Assembly: GCA_030636025.1 (NCBI GenBank)
Contig: DAOVXQ010000003.1
Coordinates: 32,481-96,480 of the forward strand
Length of the DNA stretch: 64,000 bases
Direction: 5' to 3'
From: an archaeon
GTDB lineage: Archaea > Nanobdellota > Nanobdellia > Pacearchaeales > GW2011-AR1
Shown here piece after piece: positions 5,683-60,147 of the stretch. The translations under genes were made by a program, and so were the position numbers. The notes under the pieces were generated by a model that was not told the DNA's origin, searched no databases, and saw only the letters and a list, made by a program, of their open reading frames with translations. Within the stretch, counting starts at the first letter, position 1, and each line of letters starts with the position of its first letter.

Positions 5683-5806
5683 CTTCGCTAACCTAATAAC
5701 TAATATTTATATTTTATAATATCAATCTCTTTGAAGATGAGTGATTAAGAAGAATAAGATATAAATAAAAAGAAATTTTTGGTTAGTGAACTCCAAAAAT
5801 TTCATC
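5683..5806 (+). repeat. Dispersed intergenic repeat, copy 1 (TATA-like box plus hairpin)
   Basis: ...CTTCGCTAACCTAA...GAAGATGAGTGATTAAGAAGAATAAGATATAAATAAAAAGAAATTTTTGGTTAGTGAACTCCAAAAATTTCAT, with hairpin arms AAATTTTTGG/CCAAAAATTT. Confidence 0.8.
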
Positions 5807-5894
5807 TAAAGCAAGCAATAAAAAAGTATAACAATTATTCTCTTGGAGTTTAAACCACTAAATCTTTATAAATTAATAAAACATTATACTAAAA

Positions 5895-6124
5895 TGGCTA
5901 AAAAAGAATTATTAGAAAAAGCACTTTCAGAAGTAAATAAATGTAATCCTAATTCACCAGACTATCTCTCTAAATTTTTGAAATATTATTCTCTTTTTGA
6001 AGAAGTCCATCCTGAATGTATTCGAGGATATAATTTAGGAAGTCCATATGCACGTCCAGACCCAAAACCAGGGGGCAGAGGAGATTTAGGGGGAGCAATT
6101 AAACTTCGCCATATCCGAAATTGA
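5895..6124 (+). CDS. Small hypothetical protein
   Basis: ATG-initiated version (MAKKELLEKAL...) of track ORF 5843..6124. It lies downstream of repeat copy 1. Confidence 0.35.
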
Positions 6125-6197
6125 AAAACAATTTCAGAGATATTAAAAACAAGCACTTATAGTGCATTGTTTTTTTGATATACTTCAGTAATTCTTT

Positions 6198-9062: not shown

Positions 9063-9101
9063 TCTGTTTAAAAGAAAAAGGTATTTTTAAAGTTTGTTTG
9101 A

Positions 9102-9743: not shown

Positions 9744-9795
9744 AAAAATAAATACATAGTTAGCTTTATAAATATAATAGGGTGTTATTTTATAT

Positions 9796-9871: not shown

Positions 9872-9934
9872 TAATTTTTAGGGCAGGATTTTCTAAACAC
9901 ATAATTATTTAAGGAATAAAATATTAAGTAAAAT

Positions 9935-10172: not shown

Positions 10173-10505
10173 ATGACAAAACTGATTACTATTTCTGGAA
10201 AGAAATTTTGCAAGATACTTGAAAAATTAGAGTTTGAAAAAATTCATGGAAAAGGAAGCCATATAAGATTCAAGCATCCTGATGGAAGAAGAACAGTTGT
10301 CCCTGTTCATGGAAATGAAGATTTAGGAAAAGGATTATTAAGAACAATTTTAAACCAAATTGATTTAACTAAAGAAGAGTATGAGAATCTGAGGAAAGAG
10401 GCTTCGTTGAATTTTTTGATTGGGCAGGTGATGCGGTTGTCGGAGAGACGTGCTGGTCCTGATGAAGTTCGAGTGTGTTTGAAGAGGTTGATAGGTGAGG
10501 GTTGA
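10173..10505 (+). CDS. hicA: HicA-family toxin with a ~40-aa GatB/YqeY-like C-terminal extension
   Basis: ISGKKFCKILEKLEFEKIHGKGSHIRFKHPDGRRTVVPVHGNEDLGKGLLRTIL is HicA. The tail SLNFLIGQVMRLSERRAGPDEVRVCLKRL resembles the C-terminal helix of GatB/YqeY domains and is visibly more GC-rich. Confidence 0.75.
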   Translation: MTKLITISGKKFCKILEKLEFEKIHGKGSHIRFKHPDGRRTVVPVHGNEDLGKGLLRTILNQIDLTKEEYENLRKEASLNFLIGQVMRLSERRAGPDEVRVCLKRLIGEG

Positions 10506-13984: not shown

Positions 13985-14074
13985 ATGGTATTGTCGAGCA
14001 AAAGCAATTTCTTATTTATTTGTTTATTTATTTATTTACTAAAATTGCTTTTGGGAGCAGGATTGCTAATCCCG
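13985..14074 (+). pseudogene. tRNA-Ser fragment (a): D-arm remainder plus hairpin plus anticodon-arm-like sequence
   Basis: ATGGTATTGtCGAGCAAAAGCAATT-[33-nt AT loop]-AATTGCTTTTGGGAGCAGGATTGCTAATCCCG is homologous to fragment (b). It lacks an acceptor 5' strand. Confidence 0.6.
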
Positions 14075-14189
14075 CACTATAAAAATGGCACTATACTAAA
14101 AAATAGGGAAACTCAGATAATTATTTAAACTATAAAATACTTTATTCTATATGATTAAAATTAAATTAAAAGGAGGTTAAAAAATAAAT

Positions 14190-15517: not shown

Positions 15518-15541
15518 TCTCAATCTTTCTTTTATTTTTAA

Positions 15542-15682
15542 GCCGACATCGCATACCCCTCTGGGCATACCCAAAGGGCACAAGCAAGAGCCTCTGAGGA
15601 GGTAATGGTATTGCCGAGCAAAAGCAATTTTAGTATATAGATAAAAATAAGGAATTGCTTTTGGGAGCAGGATTGCTAATCC
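15542..15682 (+). pseudogene. tRNA-Ser fragment (b): 5' half with two insertions, ending after the anticodon loop
   Basis: GCCGACATCGCATA + 49-nt insertion (15556-15604) + ATGGTATTGC + hairpin CAAAAGCAATT/AATTGCTTTTG + CAGGA-TTGCTAA-TCCAG. No T arm or 3' acceptor follows. Confidence 0.65.
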
Positions 15683-15745
15683 AGTCAAACAAAATAGGGC
15701 AGTTAGTAAATAAATTCTTATAAATGATAATTATTTAGAAAATTC

Positions 15746-16240: not shown

Positions 16241-16266
16241 TCTTAAAATATTGTATATTTTCATAA

Positions 16267-16339
16267 GCCGACATCGCATACCCCTCTGGGCATACCCAAA
16301 GGGCACAAGCAAGAACCTCTAAGGAGGTAATGGTATTGC
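16267..16339 (+). pseudogene. tRNA-Ser fragment (c): acceptor 5' strand plus 49-nt insertion plus D-arm remainder
   Basis: Identical to (b) over GCCGACATCGCATA[49 nt]ATGGTATTGC except for two G-to-A differences in the insertion. It diverges after the D arm. Confidence 0.65.
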
Positions 16340-16395
16340 GGAAATATTCCATAACAATGGATTTTTAAGGCATATCTGCTTTGCAGATATGAAAA

Positions 16396-16476
16396 GCCGA
16401 CATCGCATAATGGTATTGCACTAGATTGCTAATCTAGACCCTTCGGGGTTCCCAGGTTCGATTCCTGGTGTCGGCG
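16396..16476 (+). tRNA. tRNA-Ser (GCT)
   Basis: Acceptor GCCGACA/TGTCGGC, discriminator G, anticodon arm CTAGA-TTGCTAA-TCTAG, long variable arm ACCCTTCGGGGTTC, T arm CCAGG-TTCGATT-CCTGG. Total 81 nt. Confidence 0.9.
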
Positions 16477-22712: not shown

Positions 22713-23570
22713 ATGGGTGATAAAAATAATATTCTTAAAATAGAGTCACAGTTGCAACAGGGGGTTAAGATGGTTGCAATGATTGCACCAAGTTTTGTCG
22801 TGGATTTCCAATACCCCTCGATAATAAATAAATTATGTAAACTTGGGTTTGATAAATCTGTTGAATTGACTTTTGGTGCAAAAATGATTAATCGAGAGTA
22901 TCATAAAAAATTAAAAAAAGCAAAAGAATTAGTTATTGCTACTGCCTGTCCGGGAATTGTAAATAGTATAAAAAACAAATACCCGCAATATGTAAAAAAT
23001 TTGATTTTAGTTGATAGTCCCGTGGTTGCAATGGGAAAAATTTGCAGAAGAGAATACCCTAAACATAAATTAGTTTTTATTTCTCCTTGTGATTTTAAAA
23101 AAACAGAAATAGAAAATTCAGAATATATTGATTATGTTATTGATTATGAACAATTAAAAGAATTATTCAAAAAAAATAAAATCGTAAAAAATAACTGCCC
23201 GATTTTATTTAATAAATTCTATAATGATTATACTAAAATTTATCCTCTCGCAGGAGGGTTAGGGAAAACCGCGAATTTAAAAGGAATTCTCAAACAAGAA
23301 GAGATTCTTGCTTTAGACGGAATTAAAAAAGTGTTTAAATTTTTAGATAATCCAAATCCAAAAATAAAATTTTTAGATGTTTTATTTTGTGTTGGGGGAT
23401 GTATTGGAGGACCAAAAACAACTAAAAAATTAACAATTCCTCAAAAAAGAAAAAAGGTTTTAGATTATTTAAAAAAAGCAAAAGATGAAGACATCCCTGA
23501 AGATAGGAAAGGCCTGATTGAAAAAGCAAAAGGGATTAAGTTTAGTGGTAAGTGTTGGTTTAGTAAGTAA
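22713..23570 (+). CDS. Minimal [FeFe]-hydrogenase large-subunit-like protein (H-domain only)
   Basis: 285 aa. MIAPSF, ATACPG (versus TSCCP), ISPCDFKKTE (versus MPCxxKKxE) and FCVGGCIGGP (versus MACxGGCxxGGG). No ferredoxin-like N-terminal domain. Confidence 0.6.
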   Translation: MGDKNNILKIESQLQQGVKMVAMIAPSFVVDFQYPSIINKLCKLGFDKSVELTFGAKMINREYHKKLKKAKELVIATACPGIVNSIKNKYPQYVKNLILVDSPVVAMGKICRREYPKHKLVFISPCDFKKTEIENSEYIDYVIDYEQLKELFKKNKIVKNNCPILFNKFYNDYTKIYPLAGGLGKTANLKGILKQEEILALDGIKKVFKFLDNPNPKIKFLDVLFCVGGCIGGPKTTKKLTIPQKRKKVLDYLKKAKDEDIPEDRKGLIEKAKGIKFSGKCWFSK

Positions 23571-23609
23571 TTTAATAAATAACCAATAATTTTGTATAAA
23601 ATAATATGG

Positions 23610-23709
23610 ATTAAACTTTCGTAACTTAAGTTTTGCAGACAAGTGATTAAGAAGAATAAGATATAAATAAAAAAGAAATTTTTGGTTAGTGAAACTCCAA
23701 AAATTTTAT
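23610..23709 (+). repeat. Dispersed intergenic repeat, copy 2
   Basis: ATTAAACTTTCGTAACTTAAG...GCAGACAAGTGATTAAGAAGAATAAGATATAAATAAAAAAGAAATTTTTGGTTAGTGAAACTCCAAAAATTTTAT. Confidence 0.8.
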
Positions 23710-23788
23710 AGGATATTTCAGAACTATTCTTCCCATAATAAATCTCCCCCACAATAATCCTTATAAACTATTTTAATTCAAATAAATT

Positions 23789-24765: not shown

Positions 24766-25011
24766 TTATTCATAAACATTTTTTCTATGTTCAAATCTTA
24801 AAAAAATAAGAACTCCTTCACGAAAAGTATAAATTATTCTATAATGTTTAACATAAATAGTTCTCTCACCCTTCAAATCATATTTTAAAGGCTTACCAAT
24901 TTCAGAGTTATCTATAATTTTTTTAACTTGTTTAATTAATTTTTGTTTAATAAAAGAATCAACCTTTTTCACATCTTTTTCAAATTTTTCAGTATAAATG
25001 GTTCTTACCAT
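24766..25011 (-). CDS. RelE/ParE-family toxin
   Basis: 81 aa. FEKDVKKV...IGKPLKYDLKGERTIYVKHYRIIYTF...ILIFLRFEHRKNVY is the typical RelE/ParE pattern. It overlaps the antitoxin gene by 7 nt. Confidence 0.75.
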   Translation of the reverse strand: MVRTIYTEKFEKDVKKVDSFIKQKLIKQVKKIIDNSEIGKPLKYDLKGERTIYVKHYRIIYTFREGVLIFLRFEHRKNVYE

Positions 25012-25265
25012 TTTTTTAATTCTTTTAAAAAATCATCACTTTCCATTTCTTTAAACCTGCCTTCTTCAATATCTTTCCAAGCTTCTTCAACCCTCTTTAT
25101 AGTTTTAATATCTTCTTCAAGAATAACATTATCAATTTTTTTTAAAATAATCAAATCATTATCTTTAATTGTAGCAAATACACTGCCTTCTTTCAAACCT
25201 AAACTCTCACGAATTCCTATAGGCAAAACAATTTGTCCCTTGCTACTCATTTTCGTAATTTCCAT
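25005..25265 (-). CDS. AbrB/MazE/SpoVT-family antitoxin
   Basis: SSKGQIVLPIGIRESLGLKEGSVF is the swapped-hairpin AbrB motif. Confidence 0.8.
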   Translation of the reverse strand: MEITKMSSKGQIVLPIGIRESLGLKEGSVFATIKDNDLIILKKIDNVILEEDIKTIKRVEEAWKDIEEGRFKEMESDDFLKELKKW

Positions 25266-26937: not shown

Positions 26938-26984
26938 AAAGAAGGAGTAAATTACATATATCTTCACAAAATAACTTATTTCAT

Positions 26985-27286
26985 ATTAAACTTAAAAACC
27001 ACGCTAACCTAAGTTTGTTCTTTTCTTAAAATCATATAAAGTTAATAAGTTTCACAGACGAGATTATAAATAAAAAGAAATTTTTGGTTAAATTAAGGAA
27101 GGGTGACTTGTTAAGTATCTCAAGGGAAGATGACTTGTTAAGAAACCGTTAGGTGTCTTACGATTCCATACGATCCTTAATTTCATAGAATATTACAAAA
27201 CTAATTTTAGGTTTCCTTAGGACATATATCTCTGGATTGCACATGAAATATCTATCAATTAAACTTAAAAACACCCTTAATCTAAC
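26985..27286 (+). repeat. Dispersed intergenic repeat, copy 3, disrupted by a 90-nt nested insertion and flanked by imperfect direct repeats
   Basis: ATTAAACTTAAAAAC... occurs at 26985 and 27258. The core AGATTATAAATAAAAAGAAATTTTTGGTTA is interrupted at 27091-27180 and resumes TTTCATAGAATAT as in copy 5. Confidence 0.7.
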
Positions 27287-27295: not shown

Positions 27296-27586
27296 ATGGA
27301 ATTTACACCAATAAAATGGAAAGATGTTGTAAGAGAATTTAAAATCCCGAAATCAGAATACAAACTATTTCAAAAGCCATTAACCAGAGGATACGACAGA
27401 ATCCCGCAAACACAATCTTTTGATTCTCTTAAAAACATAGATTATAATTTAAAAATACTCGACTATAAAACAAAAAAAGATTTAGAATACCCAACGCTTT
27501 CACCATTTCATGGTTCTTATGGCGGGGCAGACGGTTATCAATCATCAATGCCCAAAGCTTCAACATCAAATTATTCTGTTAATTAG
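27296..27586 (+). CDS. Hypothetical protein with S/G/Y-rich tail
   Basis: 96-aa ORF. Confidence 0.4.
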   Translation: MEFTPIKWKDVVREFKIPKSEYKLFQKPLTRGYDRIPQTQSFDSLKNIDYNLKILDYKTKKDLEYPTLSPFHGSYGGADGYQSSMPKASTSNYSVN

Positions 27587-30924: not shown

Positions 30925-31000
30925 TTAAATATTTAAATTAATTCTAAAATTTCTTAAACATATTCTAATTTAGATATGATAACCCAACTAATTAAAATTA

Positions 31001-31056
31001 TAAGATATAAATAGGAAAAGTGAATTTGGGTTAGATTTATCTTCCCAAATTTCATT
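31001..31056 (+). repeat. Dispersed intergenic repeat, copy 6 (divergent)
   Basis: TAAGATATAAATAGGAAAAGTGAATTTGGGTTAGATTTATCTTCCCAAATTTCAT. The hairpin arms carry compensatory changes relative to copy 1. Confidence 0.65.
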
Positions 31057-31140
31057 TAAAATAAACTTCTCATCTCCAAAGCTCATCTGTTTTTAAGAGA
31101 TTTAAAAAATAAAATAATCAAAGAAAATTTTTAACTAAAA

Positions 31141-33713: not shown

Positions 33714-34346
33714 ATGGTAGAAAATATTACCAACTTAGAAATAGAAATAATCCGTTTATATAAAAATAATTATCTTAAAGAGATTTACATAAGAGAGATG
33801 GCTAAATTACTTGAAAAAAGCCATGTTACTCTTCTTCCTCACTTAAAAAATCTTGAAAAAAGAAATATCCTAATTTCAAAAATTTCTGGTAAAAATAAAA
33901 ACTACAAACTAAATATGGGCAATAATCTATCTAAGGAATATATTTCTATGGCAGAAAAACAAGATACTATTTCCATAATAAAAAAAGAGTTTTTTATAAA
34001 AAAAATTTATGATGAAACTCTAAATTTAGATTTAAATGGGATTATGGCACTATTTGGGAGTTATGCATCTGGGACATATAATAAAAAGAGTGACATAGAT
34101 TTATTTTACATAGGTTCAATCACAGAAAATCAAAAAAAATCAATAAAAAACATGGGAAGACTTTACAAAAAACGCATTCATTTAAGTGTTATGAATTTAA
34201 ACCAATTCAAAAAATCTTTAAAAGAAAATATAATAATAACCAAAGAAATAATAAAAAACCACATAATCCTGCAAAATTCAGACACATTCATAAATTCATT
34301 ATGGAAATATTATAATGGAAAAAGAGAATTTAACATGGTGTTTTAA
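33714..34346 (+). CDS. Nucleotidyltransferase (MNT-type antitoxin) with N-terminal wHTH
   Basis: LFGSYASGTYNKKSDIDLFYIG (GSxxxG...DxD). Confidence 0.7.
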   Translation: MVENITNLEIEIIRLYKNNYLKEIYIREMAKLLEKSHVTLLPHLKNLEKRNILISKISGKNKNYKLNMGNNLSKEYISMAEKQDTISIIKKEFFIKKIYDETLNLDLNGIMALFGSYASGTYNKKSDIDLFYIGSITENQKKSIKNMGRLYKKRIHLSVMNLNQFKKSLKENIIITKEIIKNHIILQNSDTFINSLWKYYNGKREFNMVF

Positions 34347-34818
34347 AAAAGAAAGAGGATTAAAAATAATTGAAACTAATGAGAATCTTGTTAAAACATA
34401 TTTAAAAAAGTCAAAGAGTGCATTAAATATGCTTAATTCAGCAATTAGCAAAGATGAACTTGATTGGGTTTTAGACACTTCGTATTATGCAAAATATTTT
34501 TCAGTTTATGCTCTTTTTATGAAGATTGGAATTAAATGTGAAATACACGATTGCACAATATCTGCACTTAAGATATTTGTTGAAGAAGGAATTTGCACTA
34601 AAGAAATATATGAAGAACTTGAAAAATCCAAAGAATTAAGAATAAATGCATTATACTATGAAAAAGAATTTGGGAGGCAAGATATTATAGAAAGAGCAGA
34701 TAAAACTCCTGATTTTTGCTTAAAAATTGAAAAGATTATTAACAATATTACCAACGATGAGATTAATAGCATTAGAAATAAGTTTATTGATTTTGAAAAA
34801 ACACAAACCCCCCACTAA
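34315..34818 (+). CDS. HEPN-domain protein (toxin partner of MNT)
   Basis: It overlaps the MNT gene by 32 nt. The helical protein has LKKSKSALNMLNSAI...YYAKYFSVYALFMKIG, typical of the HEPN N-terminal helices. Confidence 0.6.
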   Translation: MEKENLTWCFKKERGLKIIETNENLVKTYLKKSKSALNMLNSAISKDELDWVLDTSYYAKYFSVYALFMKIGIKCEIHDCTISALKIFVEEGICTKEIYEELEKSKELRINALYYEKEFGRQDIIERADKTPDFCLKIEKIINNITNDEINSIRNKFIDFEKTQTPH

Positions 34819-35702
34819 GCAACCTTCTCTTTTTTCTTAGGATACAAATCAACATAATCTAAATTTTTTCCAATTTTCGGATGTTCTTTTTTAATTAAAT
34901 CAATCGCCTGTGTAATATCCATATCTTTTTGTGCAACTATTGCATGATATTTTTCCCTCGCCATTTTCAAACCAGTAGCTAAAACATCAACATCTGTTTC
35001 TGAAACTTTACAATGCTTTTCTAAATATTCATGAGTTTTTTTAATTCCACTCATCCCCTGACCCCGCATATCAAACTTATCCCTTCTTGCTAATTTTTTT
35101 AACCTCGCTGAATTTTGAGAAAGAAGCTGAAATTCCTTTGGAGACAAGTCACCAATTTTTCTGTTCCCACTAATTACATCGTCCAAAATTGGAGCAAGTG
35201 CTTCATACATTCTTGGCTTCTCGGTTTTCTCTAAATATTTTTTAGCACTTTTCCTATATTTTTCAAATCCCTCAACCTCATAACTATTATCCTCAACAAC
35301 TTTTTTTAAAGGAAAATATTTAATTTCATCTAAGACAGAATTAGGAACATAACTTTTCTTATAATTTTTTAAAATTCTTTCAACTTGTGGGGGTGAGCGT
35401 TTTATAAATGCAGAAGCATCCCCGATTAATGCAACTTTATTTTTATTTGGTTCTATATTACTTATCCTGCTCAAAATATCATCAACATTTATCTCCTCTG
35501 CAATAGCTTCTAATTTTTGTCCAGTAATAATTAAAACAATTCCACCCCCCACCAACCCCAACCCAATAAAAAACCAAACCTTACTAATCGTTGACGAAAT
35601 ATCAATAACTGCCCCAGTCAATCCAGCAAACGGCTGAAAAATAATTATAAAAATTCCCAATAAAATTAAACCAAAACCAAATTTTTTAAACCTGTTTTTC
35701 AT
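34815..35702 (-). CDS. Membrane protein (2 N-terminal TM helices) of unknown function
   Basis: 295-aa ORF. The first 9 codons and the promoter lie inside the 68-bp direct repeat. Confidence 0.55.
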   Translation of the reverse strand: MKNRFKKFGFGLILLGIFIIIFQPFAGLTGAVIDISSTISKVWFFIGLGLVGGGIVLIITGQKLEAIAEEINVDDILSRISNIEPNKNKVALIGDASAFIKRSPPQVERILKNYKKSYVPNSVLDEIKYFPLKKVVEDNSYEVEGFEKYRKSAKKYLEKTEKPRMYEALAPILDDVISGNRKIGDLSPKEFQLLSQNSARLKKLARRDKFDMRGQGMSGIKKTHEYLEKHCKVSETDVDVLATGLKMAREKYHAIVAQKDMDITQAIDLIKKEHPKIGKNLDYVDLYPKKKEKVA

Positions 35703-35742
35703 AAATAAAATTAGATGAATGTTTATTTAAATGTTTAGAAAA
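35675..35742. repeat. 68-bp direct repeat, left copy (island boundary)
   Basis: AACCAAATTTTTTAAACCTGTTTTTCATAAATAAAATTAGATGAATGTTTATTTAAATGTTTAGAAAA is identical by eye to 38262-38329. Confidence 0.9.
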
Positions 35743-36050
35743 TTATTTTAAACAAGTTTAATTCTTTAAAATATAAGAAATTCTATGCCTATGATACAAT
35801 TAAAATTATTTCTCATTTTAAAGGCGCATTTCTTTTCTTTACTAAATCATTTCTCTTACCTATTAAAAGAACAAAAAACATTAGCCCAAAAAATAATTCT
35901 TCTCGATAAAGTCAAGACTATCTGTCCGTAGGACCAAAAGTTCCCCCTTTTATATTTTAGGCTTTTTGAATTTTTCTTTTCAGGTGGGGAGGGGGTGGTG
36001 CCGACGACATTAAATTAGAGAGATTGCCCGACTTTTTTGCTTCTTTCTTT

Positions 36051-36503: not shown

Positions 36504-37481
36504 TTAATCCTCGATCTTTATATCTGCATATGAATTTTTTATAAATTCCAAGTATTTTTTGTGAATCTTTAAATTTCTCTTTTGTATTTCAATAAGTTTT
36601 TGAAGCCTCTTTACAAGGGGGTTTTCCAAAGTGTAATATTCTAGGGGGTTCTTTTTTCCAGGGTAGCGTGAAAAATTAAAGTGAGGTTCTATAAAAAAAT
36701 TCAAAGTTGAACTTACTGCATGAGAGGTTCCACCATAAACCATAGACTCTGCATGTCTAAGTGCGATATGCCTAAGAAATTCTCCAGTTACATTAAGTGC
36801 TTCTTTCTCCTCTTGTTCGCTTATTCCAATTCCCTCCTCTCTTTTTATTTTAGAAAAGGCCTTAATATTGCTAATCCATTCATTTGCAAGTTCTTCTTCT
36901 GTAAGTTTGTCTAACTTTTTAGCTTCAAACGTTTCTGCATTAAGTAATACCTTATCCATCTCCGAGAGGTTCTGGTCTAAAATTTCAAGATTGTCTGAAT
37001 AAATTTTTCCCTTTTCACTAACGCTCTTAATAATTCCTTCTGCCTCAATAACTTTTTTTTGATAGTCTTCTAGGTTTAATTTTTTAATCATAGGTATTTC
37101 TTTTAACTTGGGATTATTCTTTATAGCCTCCTTTAAATTAATAGTTTTTTTTAGGTTGGCTTTAATATCTTCGAGGTGTTTTTTAGAAGGGAAATGCCCA
37201 ACCTTTTCTTTTAATTCCTGTGATTTAAGAATCTCATTTAGCAAAAAGAGTGCTTTTGTGCTTTTCTCCACACTTTGTTGAAATGAAGATACAGAATTTG
37301 GGTATTTCTTATTTTCAAATAAAATTTTAGAGGATTCAAGATCTTCTTCTGCAATTTTTATTAATTCAAAAGCATAATCCACTTCTTTCTGATATTCTAG
37401 CCTTCTCTGGATATCTTCCTTTCCAGGCCCTTCTGGCATTTTCTTTAAAGCTTTTTCAACAGATTCTGGATCTGATATCAT
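36504..37481 (-). CDS. HEPN-domain protein with a ~170-aa coiled-coil insertion
   Basis: The N-terminal helices AEEDLESSKILFENKKYPNSVSSFQQSVEKSTKALFL and the C-terminal NFSRYPGKKNPLEYY match the HEPN (xxRYP) pattern. RHIALRH is also present. Confidence 0.55.
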   Translation of the reverse strand: MISDPESVEKALKKMPEGPGKEDIQRRLEYQKEVDYAFELIKIAEEDLESSKILFENKKYPNSVSSFQQSVEKSTKALFLLNEILKSQELKEKVGHFPSKKHLEDIKANLKKTINLKEAIKNNPKLKEIPMIKKLNLEDYQKKVIEAEGIIKSVSEKGKIYSDNLEILDQNLSEMDKVLLNAETFEAKKLDKLTEEELANEWISNIKAFSKIKREEGIGISEQEEKEALNVTGEFLRHIALRHAESMVYGGTSHAVSSTLNFFIEPHFNFSRYPGKKNPLEYYTLENPLVKRLQKLIEIQKRNLKIHKKYLEFIKNSYADIKIED

Positions 37482-37990
37482 GAACTTCTCTCCTTTTCTT
37501 CAGGATAAAAATATTTATCATGAATTTCTTTTACTCCCAAGTCACTTTTTGCTAATTTCATTTCCTTCATCATCTCATCTCCTTTTTCCCTAGTTAGTGG
37601 CTTGAAGGTTCTACCATAATCAATATAATCTGCATTTGTCCATTTTTCCAGAGAATCTTTTGATAATTTCAGGTTTATTTTTTCTTCATTTAATTTAACC
37701 CAAAACCTGAAAAAGACTAATATAAAAATTCCCAGAACAATAAAGTTAAAGCCCTTAAGTGAAATCTTTCCATTAATCAAATCATAAACCCCGGTTGCTA
37801 AGTAGCTTCCTAGAATTGCGAACAAAATTCCATACATAAAAAACTCTGATTCTCTTATTTTCTGCGTCAAAGATTTTTCATGATCATAATAAGATTCTAA
37901 AATTTTTCCTTTATCTTTTTTGCTTAAATACACTCTTCCGCCCTCGGGATTTTCACCCATTCTTTCAGTCCAAGATTTTTCTTCTTCCAT
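37478..37990 (-). CDS. Two-TM membrane protein (first gene of the island operon)
   Basis: 170 aa with TM helices FFMYGILFAILGSYLATGVY and FNFIVLGIFILVFFRFWV. ATGA overlap with the next gene. Confidence 0.5.
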   Translation of the reverse strand: MEEEKSWTERMGENPEGGRVYLSKKDKGKILESYYDHEKSLTQKIRESEFFMYGILFAILGSYLATGVYDLINGKISLKGFNFIVLGIFILVFFRFWVKLNEEKINLKLSKDSLEKWTNADYIDYGRTFKPLTREKGDEMMKEMKLAKSDLGVKEIHDKYFYPEEKERSS

Positions 37991-38261
37991 AAAATTCCGA
38001 ATGCTAACCCCTTAATATATTTATTTATAATGAACTCCCAAATGAAATAGAAAAATTTGGGTGTAACGAAGTGAAACCTTTTACCCTTTGTTATGAGAAA
38101 TTTTAATTTCGCGGGTTTTCTCGTCGGTTGGGTAAAAGAAGTTTTTCTCTGAAAACAAAGTTTTCAGCTATCTGTCCGAAGGGCGCGGGCTTATCTCTCC
38201 TATCGTTAGGGTGGGAAGAAAAGAAAAATTAAAATTTGGGCGAAGCCAAGCAACACCCTTT

Positions 38262-38329
38262 AACCAAATTTTTTAAACCTGTTTTTCATAAATAAAATTA
38301 GATGAATGTTTATTTAAATGTTTAGAAAA
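38262..38329. repeat. 68-bp direct repeat, right copy (overlaps the ppsA stop codon)
   Basis: Identical to 35675-35742. It contains a truncated copy of the start of gene 34815..35702 and ends at the last codons of ppsA. Confidence 0.9.
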
Positions 38330-42295: not shown

Positions 42296-42347
42296 AAATT
42301 CTTTAGAAAAAATAGGTTTTTAAAGGTTATGACAAGAAATTTCTATT

Positions 42348-42498
42348 CTTCGCTAATCTAATTATCTATATCTTATAATATCGATCTCTTTGAAGATGAG
42401 AATTATAGTTTATACAAACTGCTCTTCTCTAAATCTCATAAGTTTTGAAAGATATAAACAAAAAGAAATTTTGGGTTAGTAAACTTCCAAAATAAATT
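42348..42498 (+). repeat. Dispersed intergenic repeat, copy 4 (divergent, with an extra ~45 nt)
   Basis: CTTCGCTAATCTAATTATC...ATCGATCTCTTTGAAGATGAG...GATATAAACAAAAAGAAATTTTGGGTTAGTAAACTTCCAAAATAAATT. Confidence 0.65.
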
Positions 42499-42503: not shown

Positions 42504-44306
42504 TCACAAAACAATCTCAAACTTGCCCAACTCTTTTTTCAAAAAATCCAGCATCTTACTATCCAAACCAATCCCATCCCCCTTAAACTCACTCAAAACT
42601 TTATTTAATTCATTAACATCACTCTTAACAATTTTCCCACCCTCAATTTTCTGCACATTTTTTTCAGAAACTAAAAAACTCGGTTTTGTCAAAAACAATT
42701 CAGAGTGTTTCCCACCATGAGTCAAAACAATTTTCGCTTTTTCCAGCAATCCCAAATCCCTCCTCTGCCCATACTCAATCAAACTCTCAACCAAATAAAC
42801 AGAATCCTTTCTTAAATCTTCAAATTTTTGCTTTGGAATATCCTCTTTCTTTTTAGCATATTTCTTCTCAACCTTAATCAAATCATGCAGAGTATGCAAA
42901 AATTTAGGATTCCCCTTCCCCCGATTTACAATTTCTTTTTCATATTCTTTAATCAATAAACTTTCATTCTTATTTCCAAACAGCGACTTCATTATCTTAA
43001 AAACATTCTCGTAAATTTCCTTAAGCGTCTTTTTCTGCATTCTTTTTTCAATGTCCACTCGTAGTTCCCTCAATCTTTTCAAATAATCCTCAGAATCCTT
43101 CAACAATCTGTCAATATCCTTTCCAGAAACTTCTTTAACTTTTCCATGTTCATACCCCTTATAATATTTAATCATAACCTCATCCAATATATCCCAATAT
43201 TTTTTCTCTAACATTTTTTCTTTATCTACAAAAATTCTTTTCATCTCTGCAACAGTTTCTTTAATATTTGTTGGAGGCAAACCATACAACATTAAAAGTG
43301 CCTGACTCGGCATTGAAACCCCCCAGTAAATATCTCCAATTAAAATATCCAACAATTTTCTTTTTGCAATTTCCTGAGTTTTGTCCCCCGCAGACATAAA
43401 CATATCAATTGATTCTGGACTTGGTTTAATCTTGCCCATTTTCAAAAGAAGTTTCCAGGGTAAAAATCCGCCCCTATCATATAATGGTGCTCCATCTCTT
43501 AAAAAAGTATAAAAAACAGGATTCGCATCCTTAACACCGTCCCAAAATTCAGTCAGCAAATAAACTTGCGGACTCAACTTATTCTGAACCCCTGCCAACT
43601 CTCCTGCCTGCATAACATAAGAATAAATAATATTCCTCAATTTGTCCTTCAACTCCAATCTCGGCATCCGCTTAACATCTGTATCATCAATTATAATATA
43701 AACATCAACATCACTTGTCTTAATCGCCTCTCCCCGAACCAAACTCCCGCCGACAACATAACTATAAACATACTTCTCAAACTTTTTCAAAACCAAAGAT
43801 TTATGAATCTGCGCAACCCTCAATGACCCTAAAATCCCTTTGTCATAAAGCGGGAAAGCCATCCCAATCGCCTCGATAACCTCGTACTTGCTGTCCATGC
43901 AAATCTCCCACAAATCCCTCTCCAAAAACAAATTAAGCCAAATATTCTGTTTAGACTCCTGAATCTTTTTCACAATTTCTAATTTAACTTTATTAAATTC
44001 CTTCTCCTTATCATCTGGCAAAACAACAAGCAAATGCATTGGCTTTTTCTTTTTCTCTTCGTCAGGCAATTCATTTTCTTCATCAAAAATCTCTGCTGCC
44101 TGTGGCGGAATTATCCCAATCGCCTGAACAAACCGATACTTTTTATTAATAAATTTTTTAATAGAATCTAATCTCTCCCGAGTCTTCTGCATTTCTTTCT
44201 GCTGTTTTTCAGAAGGAACATTCTGTGCATTCGGAATCGGCTTTCCATTAACCTCTGGAGTCTGATACTGCTTATCATCCAAAGTCTTTTCATTTTCTTC
44301 TGCCAT
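42504..44306 (-). CDS. Large nucleotidyltransferase-domain protein
   Basis: 600 aa. GGSLVRGEAIKTSDVDVYIIIDD, and the block GKIKPSPESI...ALLMLYG is shared with 30061..30924. Confidence 0.6.
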   Translation of the reverse strand: MAEENEKTLDDKQYQTPEVNGKPIPNAQNVPSEKQQKEMQKTRERLDSIKKFINKKYRFVQAIGIIPPQAAEIFDEENELPDEEKKKKPMHLLVVLPDDKEKEFNKVKLEIVKKIQESKQNIWLNLFLERDLWEICMDSKYEVIEAIGMAFPLYDKGILGSLRVAQIHKSLVLKKFEKYVYSYVVGGSLVRGEAIKTSDVDVYIIIDDTDVKRMPRLELKDKLRNIIYSYVMQAGELAGVQNKLSPQVYLLTEFWDGVKDANPVFYTFLRDGAPLYDRGGFLPWKLLLKMGKIKPSPESIDMFMSAGDKTQEIAKRKLLDILIGDIYWGVSMPSQALLMLYGLPPTNIKETVAEMKRIFVDKEKMLEKKYWDILDEVMIKYYKGYEHGKVKEVSGKDIDRLLKDSEDYLKRLRELRVDIEKRMQKKTLKEIYENVFKIMKSLFGNKNESLLIKEYEKEIVNRGKGNPKFLHTLHDLIKVEKKYAKKKEDIPKQKFEDLRKDSVYLVESLIEYGQRRDLGLLEKAKIVLTHGGKHSELFLTKPSFLVSEKNVQKIEGGKIVKSDVNELNKVLSEFKGDGIGLDSKMLDFLKKELGKFEIVL

Positions 44307-47458: not shown

Positions 47459-48339
47459 GGCTCTGTTGAAAATCTCCTAGCATACAAGATTTAAATTGTG
47501 TGCTATTCCCTTACAAAATATTTCTGTTCTCATTCCTGCAATCTTTTTGGCTTTAATCGTTCCACCATACTTTCTTTTTATCGCAGAAAATCCTGCCTCA
47601 ACATTACTTCTTAAATTATATTCCCTTTGATTCCAGTTTTTCATTTGCTTTTTTCTAAAATGCCCTCGATGAATATTCTTTTTTAATGGGATAAATGTTT
47701 GGATGGATTTCCAATAGCATAATTCATAAAGCCATTCAGCACAGTAACCCTTATCTCCAGAAAAGATTTTAACGTCGCTGATTCTCTTTAAAAGATATTT
47801 TACATCTTGCATATCATGTCTAGGGGTTGTTCTAATTCTCATCACTAAAAACTTTTTAGTTTTCACGTCCAGCAAGGCTGAAAGTTTGGTATAATCTTTT
47901 GGATTTGTTCCATTAATCCTTTTCAAATAATGAAACCCTGGATTTGTTTTGGAAAATCCTGTTCCATCAATAGCGACTTTTCCCGACGACAAACCTGCAG
48001 TTATCTTCAAAAGTTTTTGCCACAAACCAACAGGAATTCTTTTTCTACTTCTACACAATGCAGAATAAGTTGAACATTTTTGTCCAAACATATCTAAAGT
48101 TTTCTCAACTCTCCTTAAACTTAATTGACAAACTTGCATTATCAAAAGTCCAGAAATATGATTTTCAAGTTTATACTTTTTTGGTCCAAATCTATGCAAA
48201 AATTCAGGATATTTAATTTTTTTAAGCAACCGCTTAATTTTTATTTGAAGATTTCTTATATGTTTCATGTTTATCACCTCAGATAAACATAGTTTTCAGG
48301 GTAGATATATTTTACCCTGAAGACTTTTTCAACAGAGCC
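47459..48339 (-). mobile_element. Intact IS4/IS5-type insertion sequence (881 bp)
   Basis: 14-bp perfect terminal inverted repeats, GGCTCTGTTGAAAA (47459-47472) and TTTTCAACAGAGCC (48326-48339). 9-bp target duplication TAAATGGAC (47450-47458 and 48340-48348). Single transposase ORF. Confidence 0.85.
47477..48277 (-). CDS. DDE transposase (IS4/IS5 type)
   Basis: AIDGTGF (D), GDKGY (D) and YNLRSNVEAGFSAIK, which is the Y-x2-R-x3-E-x6-K signature. Confidence 0.85.
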   Translation of the reverse strand: MINMKHIRNLQIKIKRLLKKIKYPEFLHRFGPKKYKLENHISGLLIMQVCQLSLRRVEKTLDMFGQKCSTYSALCRSRKRIPVGLWQKLLKITAGLSSGKVAIDGTGFSKTNPGFHYLKRINGTNPKDYTKLSALLDVKTKKFLVMRIRTTPRHDMQDVKYLLKRISDVKIFSGDKGYCAEWLYELCYWKSIQTFIPLKKNIHRGHFRKKQMKNWNQREYNLRSNVEAGFSAIKRKYGGTIKAKKIAGMRTEIFCKGIAHNLNLVC

Positions 48340-48343
48340 TAAA

Positions 48344-48422
48344 TGGACCTACCAGAGATCGCGGCCTCTTTAATAAAAAGAGGTCATCCCCACAGGGAAA
48401 CTGCTGAATTCTCGGTGTAAAC
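48344..48422 (-). pseudogene. tRNA-Val 3'-half copy V3 (with 44-nt replacement in the T arm)
   Basis: TGGACCTACCAGAGATCG[CGGCCTCTTTAATAAAAAGAGGTCATCCCCACAGGGAAACTGCTG]AATTCTCGGTGTAAAC. The IS target duplication lies in its 3' end. Confidence 0.65.
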
Positions 48423-48957: not shown

Positions 48958-49035
48958 TTTATAATATATTCAAAGGTTAATAATTTAATAATTTACTAAT
49001 ATAGTTAGGGGGATGAATTTATATTTAAAAAAACA

Positions 49036-49113
49036 TGGACCTACGCGGGATCGCGGCCTCTTTAATAAAAAGAGGTCATCCCCACAGGGAAACTGCTGAA
49101 TACTCGGTGTAAA
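49036..49113 (-). pseudogene. tRNA-Val 3'-half copy V2 (with 44-nt replacement in the T arm)
   Basis: TGGACCTACGCGGGATCG[same 44 nt as V3]AATACTCGGTGTAAAT, followed by a ~40-nt block shared with V1. Confidence 0.65.
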
Positions 49114-50072: not shown

Positions 50073-50104
50073 CTATTAAATGAGCTATTTAGACTTTAAA
50101 AACA

Positions 50105-50145
50105 TGGACCTACCAAGGATCGAACCTGGGAATACTCGGTGTAAA
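50105..50145 (-). pseudogene. tRNA-Val 3'-half copy V1
   Basis: TGGACCTACCAAGGATCGAACCTGGGAATACTCGGTGTAAAT has 1 mismatch to the intact gene over its 3' half and breaks in the anticodon loop. Confidence 0.75.
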
Positions 50146-50969: not shown

Positions 50970-51040
50970 TGGACCTACCAGGGATCGAACCTGGGAATAC
51001 TCGGTGTAAACGAGTCAGTTTGCCACTAGCTTATAGGTCC
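50970..51040 (-). tRNA. tRNA-Val (TAC)
   Basis: Sense strand: GGACCTA TA AGCT AGTGGCA AACT G ACTCG TTTACAC CGAGT ATTC CCAGG TTCGATC CCTGG TAGGTCC A. Total 71 nt with one C-A mismatch in the D stem. Confidence 0.8.
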
Positions 51041-55738: not shown

Positions 55739-55779
55739 CCAATTTAAAAGTATTTAAACTTCTGATTATTTATTATAAA

Positions 55780-56496: not shown

Positions 56497-56497
56497 A

Positions 56498-56761
56498 ATG
56501 GCAAAAAGAAACAGATTAGAAATAATAAAAGACATCTTAAAAATTATCCAGGAAAATCATCCAATAAAACCAACACCCTTACTTAGGAGAACAAACATTT
56601 CTTCATCCAGATTCAAGGAATATTATTTAGAATTATTAGATAAAGAATTTATAAAACAAACTCATGGAAAAAATAAAAAAATTACTCTGACAAAAAAAGG
56701 TTATAAATATCTAGAAAAATATCTGACAATAATAAATTTTATTGATGAATTTGAATTGTGA
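56498..56761 (+). CDS. Winged-helix DNA-binding protein
   Basis: 87 aa. RLEIIKDILKII...PTPLLRRTNISSSRFKEYYLELLDKEFI... Confidence 0.5.
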   Translation: MAKRNRLEIIKDILKIIQENHPIKPTPLLRRTNISSSRFKEYYLELLDKEFIKQTHGKNKKITLTKKGYKYLEKYLTIINFIDEFEL

Positions 56762-56830
56762 TTATTTTGATAATTACAACCCACACAACAAATCAAAAAA
56801 CTTTAAATATCTTCTTTTTCTTCAATCTTT

Positions 56831-57967: not shown

Positions 57968-58012
57968 TTGAATTTCCAATTAATTTAAATAACCCCTTTC
58001 CTTATTTTAATC

Positions 58013-58216
58013 ATGATGTTCAAATCAATAATCGGATTGATTATATTATTTTTAATTAGAAAATATCTTCACACAACCCTTTGCAGTTACGGCTCACTAA
58101 TCTGCATTTTCTGGTCAATCATACTTTACTCCTCTATGGCAATCATAGCAATTTATTGGATTATCAAAATAAAAAACTGGTTCAATCAAAAAAAGGAAAT
58201 CAAATCAGATAATTAA
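58013..58216 (+). CDS. Small membrane protein
   Basis: 67-aa hydrophobic ORF. Confidence 0.35.
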   Translation: MMFKSIIGLIILFLIRKYLHTTLCSYGSLICIFWSIILYSSMAIIAIYWIIKIKNWFNQKKEIKSDN

Positions 58217-58337
58217 TATTAATTATTAATTGCGATTATCTAAAATATTCGTTGTTATCTTTTAGTTTTTTTAGGTGTTAAAAAATTTAAATCACAAATG
58301 CAAACTTTAAAATAAGGTCAATTCTTTTAATAAATAT

Positions 58338-58940
58338 ATGATTAAAACAATTATTTTTGATTTGGCAGAAGTGTATCTCAAGGGTTTTTGTGGTATAGAA
58401 GATTATTTTAAAGATATATTGGATTTGAAAGCCATAGAAATCAAGGAAAAACTTCAAGGTCCAGAATTCAAATTGTTAATGGAAGGTAAAATAACGGAAG
58501 ATAAATTCTGGGAAAAACTAATTCAACGAAATAATTGGAGGATTGGAATAGATGAATTCAAGAAAGCAATTAGAAATAATTTTGATGAAATTAAAGGAGT
58601 GAGAGAAATTATTGAAAAGCTTAAAGACAATGGTTTCAAATTGGGATTGCTTTCTGACCATGCGAGAGAGTGGATAAATCATTGTAATGGAAAATTCGAT
58701 TATCATAAATTATTTCATTCTACACAATACTCTTTTGAAGTTGAATGTTGTAAGACAGATAAAAAAATCTTTGAGTTACTGCTTAAAAAGTTAGGTGAAA
58801 AATCAGAGAATTGTTTATTTATTGACGATAGTGAAAAAAATATTGCAGTCGCTAAATCAATTGGTTTAAATGTAATCCAATTTAAAAACCCCAAACAACT
58901 TAAAAAAGAATTGACCTCTTTCGCAATAATAATCAACTAA
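58338..58940 (+). CDS. HAD-superfamily hydrolase
   Basis: MIKTIIFDLAEV (motif I variant), LLSDH (motif II) and FIDDSEKN (motif IV). Confidence 0.6.
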   Translation: MIKTIIFDLAEVYLKGFCGIEDYFKDILDLKAIEIKEKLQGPEFKLLMEGKITEDKFWEKLIQRNNWRIGIDEFKKAIRNNFDEIKGVREIIEKLKDNGFKLGLLSDHAREWINHCNGKFDYHKLFHSTQYSFEVECCKTDKKIFELLLKKLGEKSENCLFIDDSEKNIAVAKSIGLNVIQFKNPKQLKKELTSFAIIIN

Positions 58941-59059
58941 GAGCTAAAATCTAAATTACACATAATACAAACAAACTAATCAAAATTTTTAGAACATATT
59001 ACAATATTCATTCATTCAATCTCAATAATATTTATATACAATTCTTTTCATAAAAAATT

Positions 59060-60031
59060 ATGAACAATGAACCAATTTTAATTTTAGCAGACCCTAACGG
59101 AAATGCATGGGATTTTGCAAAAGAAATATACAACAAACTTAATTCCAGCGAGGATAGAAACAGAAGGTATCATTTAGGAGAAGTTGAAATAAAAAAATTC
59201 AATGATGGCGAAATTTTCGCAGAAATAAAAGAAAATGTTCGAAAGAAAACCTGTTTCTATGTCCACGACTCTTCAATGAACCCGCAAGACTGGGCAATCT
59301 CTCTTGCAATAATAAATGACTCTTTGATGAGAAGTTCTGCAGGAAAAATAAATAACATCTTACCCTATATGAAATACTCTCGGCAGGACAGAATGGCATC
59401 GCCAAGAACTCCAATAACCTCATCAGTAATAGCAAAAATAATCAACCAAAGAGCATACAGAGTAATAACAACAGATTTACACAACCCAACAATTCAAGGA
59501 TTTTACGACATCCCCTTCGACAACCTAAAAGCATACCCGGTAATTATTAATCATCTCAAAAAAAATTACCCAGAATTTTTAGAAAACGCAATTTTAGTTG
59601 CACCCGATATTGGAAGTGCGAAAAAAGTCGAGGGATATGTTAAAAGATTAGGATTAGACATCGCAATTGCAAATAAAAAAAGAAAAGAAGCCGGCGTCGT
59701 CGGAGAAATGACAATAATCGGTGATGTTCAGGGGAAAAATGCAATAATTGTAGACGACATGATTGATACAGGCGGAACATTGATTAAGGCATCTGAAGTT
59801 TTAAAAGAAAAGGGTGCCAAAGAAATCTGGGCTTGTGCAACTCACGGACTTTTCAGCAACAACTCAATAGAAAAATTAGAAAATTCATCATTCAAAAAAA
59901 TCATAATCACAGATTCGATTCCCCAAAAATCTAAGGGAAAAATTGAAGTCATCTCATTGACAAAATTATTTGCCGAGGCAATTTTCAGAATTTCTCATGG
60001 CAAGTCAATTAGTGAGATGTTTAGGAATTAA
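59060..60031 (+). CDS. prs: Ribose-phosphate pyrophosphokinase
   Basis: YMKYSRQDR and AIIVDDMIDTGGTL (PRPP-binding loop). Confidence 0.9.
   Translation: MNNEPILILADPNGNAWDFAKEIYNKLNSSEDRNRRYHLGEVEIKKFNDGEIFAEIKENVRKKTCFYVHDSSMNPQDWAISLAIINDSLMRSSAGKINNILPYMKYSRQDRMASPRTPITSSVIAKIINQRAYRVITTDLHNPTIQGFYDIPFDNLKAYPVIINHLKKNYPEFLENAILVAPDIGSAKKVEGYVKRLGLDIAIANKKRKEAGVVGEMTIIGDVQGKNAIIVDDMIDTGGTLIKASEVLKEKGAKEIWACATHGLFSNNSIEKLENSSFKKIIITDSIPQKSKGKIEVISLTKLFAEAIFRISHGKSISEMFRN
59982..60025. repeat. Direct repeat, left copy (last 44 nt of prs coding sequence)
   Basis: TTTTCAGAATTTCTCATGGCAAGTCAATTAGTGAGATGTTTAGG recurs at 60951-60994 with 3 mismatches. Confidence 0.8.
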
Positions 60032-60072
60032 CGTTTGCCCTTATCTTAAATCAGATAATCCTAATAATTTTT

Positions 60073-60147
60073 ACAGATAAGCGATTAAAAATAATAAGAT
60101 ATAAATAAAAAGAAATTTTTGGATAGTAAAACTCCAAAAATTTCATA
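60073..60147 (+). repeat. Dispersed intergenic repeat, copy 5
   Basis: ACAGATAAGCGATTAAAAATAATAAGATATAAATAAAAAGAAATTTTTGGATAGTAAAACTCCAAAAATTTCAT. Confidence 0.8.

Follow-up and report, generated by a model that had tools for sequence, protein, structure and literature searches.

We describe a family of dispersed intergenic repeats, each built around a short hairpin, in a 64,000-nucleotide stretch of an archaeal genome of the Pacearchaeales (contig DAOVXQ010000003.1, positions 32,481 to 96,480, assembly GCA_030636025.1; hereafter the window). The family is real, occurs far beyond chance expectation, and is polar, non-coding, species-restricted and lineage-specific. Its copies are mosaics that lie for the most part behind gene ends, they carry the hairpin with different stem sequences, and one of them adjoins a junction that varies between strains. 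Our preferred, if tentative, reading is that of a young, lineage-specific, non-coding and non-autonomous dispersed mosaic repeat of the kind represented by repetitive extragenic palindromic (REP) sequences and bacterial interspersed mosaic elements (BIMEs), loosely similar to miniature inverted-repeat transposable elements (MITEs), with a copying mechanism that we infer.

The pattern TATAAAYAN{4,9}AATTTN{0,2}GGNTAR has six matches in the window, where 0.01 would be expected, all of them on the + strand and none on the - strand. Searches with an nhmmer profile of the core recovered exactly these six copies (E-values 3.6e-17 to 9.4e-7) and nothing on the - strand, and a covariance model agrees in finding no - strand member, which bears out the six related + strand copies of the original prediction; we number them 1 to 6 by coordinate, from left to right. 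A walk along ENA scaffolds extended the sequence by 17.7 kb to the left and 6 kb to the right of the window, to about 88 kb in total, and the left-flank scaffold (L165) holds a seventh, degenerate + strand copy at 1001-1066 (28 bits), 16.6 kb left of the window, with modules B and C (defined below) downstream of it at 1095-1133. The density is about seven copies in 88 kb, in one orientation throughout (two-sided p = 0.03 for six of six and 0.016 for seven of seven with the L165 copy). The orientation, earlier said to be the same irrespective of the flanking genes, is uniform and is confounded with the orientation of the local genes. A permuted partial relative that had been suspected at 38025-38075 proved to be the promoter region of the - strand gene 37478-37990, and the palindrome there is unrelated to the family; neither nhmmer nor the covariance model matches there, and BLAST aligns only 12 nt.

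The identical sequence is present in the ENA and Logan assemblies of sample SAMN18200493. The window has a G+C content of 32% and encodes the archaeal ribosomal proteins L35Ae and L10e, SMC, PPDK, POR subunits and numerous orphan proteins, and the proteins nearest to its PRPP synthase are labelled Candidatus Pacearchaeota or Nanoarchaeota, the best one from a different organism being 78% identical. A sister strain, represented by contig L159 from sample SAMN18200496 (96.7% identity across copy 6 and the PRPP synthase gene), possesses the orthologue of copy 6. Beyond this strain pair, about 90 kb fetched via homologues from relatives with a 72-78% identical PRPP synthase contained zero copies and zero analogous TATA-plus-hairpin sites, pattern scans of GTDB species-representative genomes, JGI metagenomes and IMG/VR returned chance matches only, all of them without the 3' arm, and BLAST of phage and plasmid records gave no match to the repeat. 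Nor does the repeat match Rfam 15 even at E <= 1; four tRNAs are the sole Rfam matches of the window, both at the gathering threshold and at E <= 1. No spurious open reading frame (ORF) called across the element is on record in the protein databases.

Modules, copies and hairpin

The copies share the core (A/G)AGATATAAA(T/C)A-AAAAG-GAAATTTTTGG-TTAGTRAAACT-CCAAAAATTTC-AT. The conserved unit is polar and consists of an A-rich tract, AAGATATAAATAAAAAG, followed by an AT-rich stem of 8-13 bp that encloses the asymmetric loop motif TTAGTRAAACT, with CAT directly after the stem; AAGATATAAA(T/C)A is the most invariant block across all copies. Around this core stand optional modules, upstream A/X (ATTAAACTT...CGCTAACCTAA), B, C (TTTRMAGAYRAG) and D (YGATTAAGAAGAATAAG), and downstream F (AGAATAT..AAAACTAATTTT) and G (..TCTCTGGRTTGCACA..), which makes the family longer and more modular than first described. 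The copies and their parts are as follows.

Copy 1, 5661..5812, + strand: one of the two best-preserved long copies
Copy 1, module A/X, 5661-5696, + strand: begins on the stop codon of gene 5402-5665
Copy 1, further modules, + strand: B 5704-5728, C (TTTGAAGATGAG) 5730-5741, D 5742-5758
Copy 1, core, + strand: A-rich 'TATA-like' tract 5756-5771, hairpin 5772-5782 / 5793-5803 with loop TTAGTGAACT
Copy 2, 23581..23716, + strand: X-like TAACCAATAATTT, module A 23610-23630, modules C and D
Copy 2, core, + strand: A-rich tract 23658-23674, hairpin 23675-23685 / 23697-23707 with a basal G.T pair
Copy 3, 26985..27257, + strand: the longest copy, with module A 26985-27012 and C 27053-27062
Copy 3, core, + strand: A-rich tract 27061-27076, 5' arm 27077-27087
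Copy 3, replacement, + strand: a unique stretch of about 90 nt that contains an internal 27-nt tandem repeat and forms a 10-bp stem of its own, 27090-27099 / 27174-27183
Copy 3, modules F and G, 27184-27257, + strand: common to the copy 6 orthologue in L159
Second module A after copy 3, 27258..27285, + strand: 82% identical to 26985-27012; doubles as the promoter of gene 27296-27586 (TATA CTTAAAAA, position weight matrix score 10.8)
Copy 4, 30950..31066, + strand: divergent, between convergent genes, A-rich tract 31002-31019
Copy 4, hairpin 31018-31030 / 31044-31056, + strand: 13 bp with one bulge, GGG/CCC in place of TGG/CCA
Copy 4, 30980-30987, + strand: TAACCCAA, complementary to the altered 5' arm TTGGGTTA
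Copy 5, 42349..42498, + strand: divergent, modules X/B/C 42349-42400, 92% identical to copy 1
Copy 5, core, + strand: private insert of 34-48 nt, A-rich tract 42449-42467, hairpin 42468-42475 / 42486-42493 of 8 bp including a G.T pair, 3' end eroded
Copy 5, position: between two - strand genes, 10 nt past the stop of gene 42504-44306
Copy 6, 60040..60172, + strand: X-like GATAATCCTAAT, modules C and D, A-rich tract 60096-60111
Copy 6, hairpin 60112-60123 / 60133-60144, + strand: 12 bp, z = -4.05
Copy 6, module F 60145-60165, + strand: module G deleted relative to the L159 orthologue

Modules are shared in different combinations: X/B/C by copies 1 and 5, C/D by copies 1, 2 and 6, and F/G by copy 3 and the copy 6 orthologue in L159. 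Copies 2, 3 and 5 bear private insertions, modules A and G were not found elsewhere in the window, and the sequence 3' of the hairpin is not conserved between copies. The family is accordingly a set of mosaic copies that decay by insertions and deletions.

The conserved hairpin that had been predicted is real, since RNAfold forms it in copies 1, 2, 4, 5 and 6, with stems of 11-12 bp in copies 1, 2 and 6 and in the L159 copy; copy 4 has a bulged stem of 13 bp and copy 5 one of 8 bp. Copy 3 keeps the 5' arm only; its loop and most of its 3' arm are replaced and it has the new 10-bp stem. The stem of the L165 copy is mismatched (AAACTT.GG/CC..AAGTTT). Altogether the hairpin is kept at all eight loci with four stems, namely AAATTTTTGG, GAATTTGGG, AAATTAAGGA and AAACTT.GG. 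The assignment of arms to copies needed correction: the canonical arms AAATTTTTGG/CCAAAAATTT belong to copies 1, 2 and 6, and not to copies 1, 2 and 5, and the numbers of the variant copies had been scrambled, AATTTGGG/CCCAAATT being the arms of copy 4 (31018-31056) and ATTTTGGG/TCCAAAAT those of copy 5 (42468-42493).

Compensatory pair changes, which had also been claimed, do exist, with three pairs altered on both sides; in this set of sequences, too small for a firm result, they do not reach significance, because 53 of 500 shuffles do equally well. In the alignment fitted to the model, 89% of the cells are paired, and sliding the partner columns lowers the pairing to at most 75%. The cells that depart from Watson-Crick pairing comprise four G.T, which pair on the + strand only, and one A.C, the - strand counterpart, and this excess of G.T is a weak hint that the single-stranded form of the + strand is the relevant one.

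Among the short folds only copy 6 exceeds its shuffles. Long folds of the L159 copy (z = -0.9) and copy 3 (z = +1.3) are no better than shuffles, and a large structured RNA was rejected on these values; an extended palindrome around the hairpin core was not supported either. Copies 1 and 5 fold as a single long hairpin because their modules X and B can pair in part with the 5' arm and loop and with the A-rich tract, the candidate X:Y pairing being that of TAACCNAA with TTNGGTTA; for copy 1 this fold has z = -2.87 and is equalled by one of 200 shuffles, and copy 5 folds alike. Aligning arm against arm gave p values of 0.08, 0.035, 0.6, 0.5, 0.33 and 0.79 for copies 1 to 6, nhmmer found no inverted upstream unit of the type seen in REP doublets forming hairpins (REPINs), and the covariance model has only weak matches on the - strand, at 26977-27039 (20.6 bits) and 42336-42378 (15.2 bits). 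A second, upstream pairing as a general feature of the family is only suggestive.

Gene ends, promoters and a strain-variable junction

Six of the seven loci lie behind a co-oriented gene, with 0-90 nt between its stop codon and the start of the first recognisable module and 81-138 nt between that stop and the hairpin; copy 5 is the exception. A position after a stop and before a small + strand ORF, as previously described, holds for copies 1, 2, 3 and 6, and fails for copy 5, which lies between two - strand genes. The divergent orphans had been given as copies 4 and 6; it is copies 4 and 5 that lack a downstream + strand gene, and copy 6 precedes the gene of an NYN-domain protein. Such a placement invites an account in which the repeat is a cis-acting element of 3' untranslated regions or a terminator that ends or stabilises the adjacent transcripts, an account that is compatible with the preferred reading, as it is for bacterial REPs, and that we consider unlikely. 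Its argument starts from the hairpin, which has T5 tracts on either strand, to which the - strand adds a T-rich tail, and it gains from the six of seven copies that stand roughly 100 nt behind the stop of a co-oriented gene, from the genes 5402-5665 and 22713-23570, where the first T5 run past the stop is the 5' arm of the element, and from the - strand, on which the hairpin is directly followed by TTTCTTTTTATTTAT and lies, in copy 5, 10 nt past the stop of gene 42504-44306. At copy 4 and in L159 the - strand structure likewise lies 65-90 nt past a convergent gene, and the G.T pairs can be read on the + strand only. On the other side, most genes of the window end without such a hairpin, copy 4 has no T5 run, and no - strand gene arrives from the right at copies 1, 2, 3 and 6. 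Oligo-T suffices for archaeal transcription termination, and the account leaves the conserved A-rich tract, the loop and the species restriction unexplained. A scan for bacterial-style terminators and promoters was uninformative. A terminator or 3'-end role is thus possible and is not general.

The A-rich tract had been taken for a TATA-like box, which can be judged against the promoter of the organism itself, an octamer like TTTAAATA with aaAc before it; in 22 of 37 genes exactly 21 nt separate its end from the start codon, a spacing that makes the mRNAs leaderless. Across the window this geometry is unusually rigid and implies an almost entirely leaderless transcriptome, an observation in its own right. 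The box of the repeat, ATATAAATA, scores 1.1-6.5 bits on the organism's own promoter matrix, where real promoters have a median of 12.9 bits; 0.4-2% of the positions in the window score as high as the repeat. True promoters in the same intergenic spacers reach 10.8-16.1 bits: the genes downstream of copies 1, 2, 3 and 6 have their own at the canonical distance (10.8-14.8 bits), and the spacer of copy 5 holds that of L35Ae on the other strand (16.1 bits). At +21 of the repeat box there is neither a start codon nor a conserved RNA, and copies 4 and 5 and the L159 orthologue of copy 6 are directed at a convergent gene, which they face at its 3' end. The repeat does not act as promoter for the genes beside it, and the proposed mobile promoter is not supported; the counter-case raised with it, that the motif is simply the generic consensus, is false as well, the two being distinct. 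A small-RNA gene family, the other role suggested, found no positive support, with no Rfam match and long folds at z -0.9 and +1.3.

These results also bear on a more elaborate account, in which the repeat is a promoter-plus-operator module or a small-RNA gene with ATATAAATA as its TATA box and a start in the hairpin loop; the palindrome centred on that start would bind a dimeric regulator, the predicted primary start would fall about 21 nt after TATAAATA, and transcription would yield either a short RNA, its conserved 5' end being CUCCAAAAAUUUCAU, or an antisense RNA running into convergent genes. What speaks for it is that AAGATATAAA(T/C)A is the most invariant block, that the 21-nt rule puts the start 1-3 nt from the centre of the palindrome in every copy, that the core is conserved between strains, and that copies 4 and 5 and the L159 copy would yield antisense RNAs to gene 3' ends. 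We nevertheless regard it as quite unlikely, given the low score of the box, the absence of both the upstream aaAc element and the TTTA start, the promoters that the downstream genes already carry, the lack of conservation among copies after the hairpin and the lack of an Rfam family match. An operator is moreover unlikely to tolerate four different arm sequences, and a transcript starting in the loop would omit the hairpin, yet the G.T pairs suggest a + strand form with both arms. Two further candidates were rejected: - strand coding (MKFLEF...), for which a promoter is missing and the reading frame changes from copy to copy, and a trans-acting antisense RNA to leaderless AUGAAA starts, for which the extra window matches to ATGAAATTTTTGGAG are the copies themselves.

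Copy 6 is the only copy that can be compared for presence or absence; both strains have it, one of them with a deletion of module G, and the sister-strain contig for copy 1 ends inside the neighbouring gene, before the element. From AAGATATAAA to module F the core differs between L159 and the window at one of 70 positions, compared with six of 64 in the upstream modules and 23 of 324 at third codon positions, a trend only (p = 0.054 and 0.096). The homology between the strains stops at window position 60165, which is the 3' end of the element; beyond it L159 has module G and then two unrelated - strand genes, and the window has an NYN/LabA gene with its own promoter. The features at this junction are listed here.

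NYN/LabA gene, 60173..60847, + strand: own promoter; adjoins copy 6; accessory cargo, not part of the repeat
42-bp direct repeat, left, 59982..60023, + strand: last codons of the PRPP synthase gene
42-bp direct repeat, right, 60951..60992, + strand: 95% identical; still encodes the PRPP synthase C-terminus and stop

The NYN unit is 86% identical in DNA to positions 4154-4859 of a contig (L164) of another metagenome-assembled genome, GCA_030593225.1, where the element is missing, and the sister strain lacks it at this place. The protein belongs to a 90% cluster whose 17 members come from many samples, and the gene matches the PADLOC candidate defence family HEC-09. Because its DNA identity of 86% exceeds the roughly 78% found for the housekeeping proteins of the nearest relatives, we take it for a horizontally spreading single-gene cassette, and at this sole testable junction the element borders strain-variable, horizontally acquired DNA. 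The 42-bp repeats bracket a unit of 969 bp made up of copy 6 and the cassette; around copy 3 stand the 28-bp direct repeats of module A, of which the second is the promoter of the next gene.

This junction lends itself to the view that the repeat is a recombination site at the boundaries of gene cassettes, similar to integron attC or to lox/dif sites, and used by a site-specific recombinase that would bring accessory genes in, or take them out, beside the element. That view can point to 10-bp inverted arms around an asymmetric spacer of 9-13 nt, all in one orientation, to copy 6 lying exactly at the strain-variable junction next to a horizontally spread cassette, to the direct repeats of 42 and 28 bp that enclose element and cassette in one case and copy 3 in the other, and to the 9-kb stretch with copies 2-4, which is rich in orphan genes and toxin-antitoxin pairs. 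It is, however, highly improbable in our judgement: no integrase or recombinase gene is seen in the 88 kb, the copies stand at intervals of 3.4-18 kb that contain essential genes (SMC, PPDK, ribosomal proteins), so that recombination between direct sites would be lethal, the L164 cassette has no such site, the bracketing repeats copy a local gene end or promoter and not the hairpin, and there is just one testable junction. Known core sites of tyrosine recombinases have shorter spacers than the one seen here.

The repeat beside known systems

REP sequences are stem-loops of 20-40 nt in which a GTAG or CGTC tetranucleotide stands unpaired at one stem end, and both families have been reported from bacterial phyla only (PMC3733652). 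Like REPs and BIMEs, our copies are short, imperfect, polar palindromes that lie between genes and mostly behind gene ends (PMC3733652), assembled as mosaics of optional modules; like them they show stem variants with compensated changes and G.T pairs and form a species-specific family of the kind that numbers tens of copies or fewer, and side effects on termination and mRNA stability have been proposed in both cases. They differ in the archaeal host, in a conserved A-rich tract of about 20 nt before the stem, in inverted dimers that are not demonstrable and in the single orientation of all copies. They also have no GTAG or CGTC tag at the stem end on either strand; the stem is flanked by AAAAAG before it and CAT(A/C/T) after it, and TAGT occurs in the loop only. 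With REPINs and their REP-associated tyrosine transposases (RAYTs), and with the palindrome-associated transposable elements (PATEs) derived from IS200/IS605, the family has in common that its members are non-autonomous hairpin repeats without terminal inverted repeats or target duplications. Those systems are mobilised strand-specifically as single strands, which gives an orientation bias relative to replication, and copies 1 and 5 fold, like a REP doublet, as a long hairpin of about 110 nt. REPIN systems have a cognate RAYT gene in single copy, as a rule with the repeats on either side of it. Unlike them, we see no Y1/HUH gene in the 88 kb and identify no conserved cleavage tetranucleotide, and the doublet symmetry of a REPIN is statistically weak here (p = 0.08 for copy 1).

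With the signal-carrying MITEs such as the Neisseria Correia elements, and with archaeal MITEs, the repeat has in common that it is small, non-coding, dispersed and intergenic, that it may hold promoter- or terminator-like sequences, and that it has internal-deletion variants and putative presence/absence variants. It is not a classical MITE, as it has neither terminal inverted repeats nor short target-site duplications: flanking direct repeats are found at two of the six loci only (28 and 42 bp) and are copies of local sequence, and the only insertion sequence (IS) in reach, of the DDE type, has ends (GGCTCTGTTGAAAA) that are unrelated to the family, so that a relation to it was dismissed. 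The suggestion of a MITE-like element or cassette boundary is thereby upheld in part, in that the repeat is species-restricted, non-coding and mosaic, with synteny broken exactly where copy 6 ends on its 3' side and with the NYN cassette next to it, and set aside in respect of the missing repeats and duplications. Integron attC sites resemble the family in being imperfect palindromes in one orientation at cassette boundaries, with a structure more conserved than the stem sequence. They are unlike it in that here no integrase is seen, there is no array, housekeeping genes lie between the copies, the stem ends have no R''/R' boxes (RYYYAAC/GTTRRRY) and there is strong conservation outside the stem. 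A test for attC clusters lacking an integrase (CALIN; at least two sites less than 4 kb apart with promoterless cassettes) was negative, with spacings of 17.9, 3.4, 3.9, 11.4 and 17.6 kb and neighbouring genes that carry their own promoters. Since the REP, MITE, attC, own-promoter and Rfam tests all came out negative, we file the family only under the broad class of dispersed intergenic hairpin repeats, of which it is a new, lineage-specific member. A diversity-generating retroelement was also rejected, the differences not being adenine-specific and no reverse transcriptase being present, as was an origin recognition box (ORB), the copies being dispersed and not clustered.

In the REP/BIME-like reading that we prefer, the hairpin with its asymmetric loop would be the part recognised during copying of the element, probably as a single-stranded hairpin and by an enzyme encoded elsewhere in the genome, which would also explain why the copies lie on the same strand. 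New copies would land just behind the stop codons of genes and then decay by insertions, deletions and replacement of modules, and may serve as homology patches or hot spots beside which accessory gene cassettes accumulate. A copy behind a co-oriented gene is probably co-transcribed with it, and its hairpin and T5 tract may act as a 3'-end structure or terminator; we infer this RNA-level effect, as we do the mechanism of copying and the reason for the strand bias.

Several observations weigh against this reading. The gene tables of the approximately 88 kb contain no transposase or recombinase able to act on the element, and specifically no HUH/Y1 (Y1_Tnp) transposase, integrase or recombinase among the genes of the window and 24 kb of flanks; the element itself is without terminal inverted repeats and short target-site duplications, and no empty site proves mobility, with only copy 6 comparable between strains. 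The stem covariation falls short of significance, as the shuffles showed, and compensated changes in a palindrome can arise via templated repair without selection. The strand bias is drawn from seven copies (p = 0.016-0.03) and is confounded with local gene orientation. Conservation also reaches about 20 nt 5' of the hairpin over the A-rich tract, beyond the usual REP-type unit, and could mean that the sequence itself has a function, for example as a promoter or as a site bound by a protein.

A bolder extension, which we consider improbable, would make the family an archaeal counterpart of the REPIN/RAYT or IS200/IS605-type single-strand hairpin elements in a DPANN genome. An HUH-type enzyme encoded in trans would then cut and paste the single-stranded DNA hairpin and impose a strict orientation relative to the replication strand, and landing behind stop codons would create hot spots at which accessory and defence cassettes such as NYN are swapped between strains. 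Dispersed hairpin repeats are well studied in bacteria and barely described in DPANN archaea, whose genomes are so tiny that any retained non-coding repeat is notable. Strand-specific mobilisation, if true, would point to a hairpin-recognising enzyme in these organisms, and hot spots of cassette exchange, if true, would help explain how accessory and defence genes are swapped among strains of reduced symbionts. As it stands, this is a modest lineage-specific repeat family whose practical value is that of a strain marker, and whose uniform strand and cassette junction are the two features worth genome-wide attention. It also cautions that AT-rich "TATA-like" motifs need to be scored against the organism's own promoter consensus.

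Other repeats and genes of the window

Toxin-antitoxin-type pairs and orphan genes cluster between 23.6 and 38 kb, the same stretch as copies 2-4; the pairs and related genes include HicA at 10173-10505, RelE/AbrB at 24766-25265 (- strand), MNT/HEPN at 33714-34818 and HEPN at 36504-37481, and also L165 1322-2333. A provirus or defence island around copies 2-4 was considered and rejected, with no PHROG matches and PADLOC reporting only weak nucleotidyltransferase matches and NYN. On another sister-strain contig (L166, sample SAMN18200496) the SMC gene at 2-2601 is apparently split into ORFs of 156 and 704 amino acids, possibly by a frameshift or an assembly error.

The insertion sequence mentioned above (47459-48339, 881 bp) encodes a DDE_Tnp_1 transposase between 14-bp terminal inverted repeats (GGCTCTGTTGAAAA) and is flanked by a 9-bp target duplication, TAAATGGAC, which is unrelated to the repeat family too; no second copy of the insertion sequence is on record. 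It sits at the 3' end of a tRNA-Val-like copy, one of three extra copies of the 3' part of tRNA-Val(TAC) that occur besides the intact gene (48343-48421, 49035-49113, 50099-50145 and 50970-51040, - strand). Two of the extra copies carry an insert of about 40 nt in the region of the T-arm, and each copy is directly upstream of the start of a - strand gene; the pieces suggest either repeated integration at tRNA-Val or pseudo-tRNAs that contain introns. The 5' part of tRNA-Ser(GCU) likewise occurs twice, with a 47-nt insert in the D-loop and 89% alike, by the intact tRNA-Ser (15540-15617, 16265-16342 and 16396-16476), and its anticodon arm is on separate repeats at 14043-14103 and 15653-15713. 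ARAGORN and Rfam detect only the intact gene in this region, and the pieces may be fragments of a split, intron-containing or duplicated tRNA.

Three further repeats are unconnected with tRNAs. A perfect 68-nt repeat, at 35675-35742 and 38262-38329 and 2.6 kb apart, comprises the promoter and first codons (MKNRFKKFG) of two - strand ORFs. The relatively G+C-rich non-coding stretches 35900-36020 and 38100-38260 have CTATCTGTCCG in common and no Rfam match, and may be structured RNAs. Finally, an 82-nt module stands before three unrelated small proteins in two strains (window 61757-61838; L159 1771-1852 and 2389-2470) and holds a promoter-like sequence, the palindrome CCGATAATAATCGG and the first codons MV(N/K), which is a second arrangement with a conserved head and a variable body.

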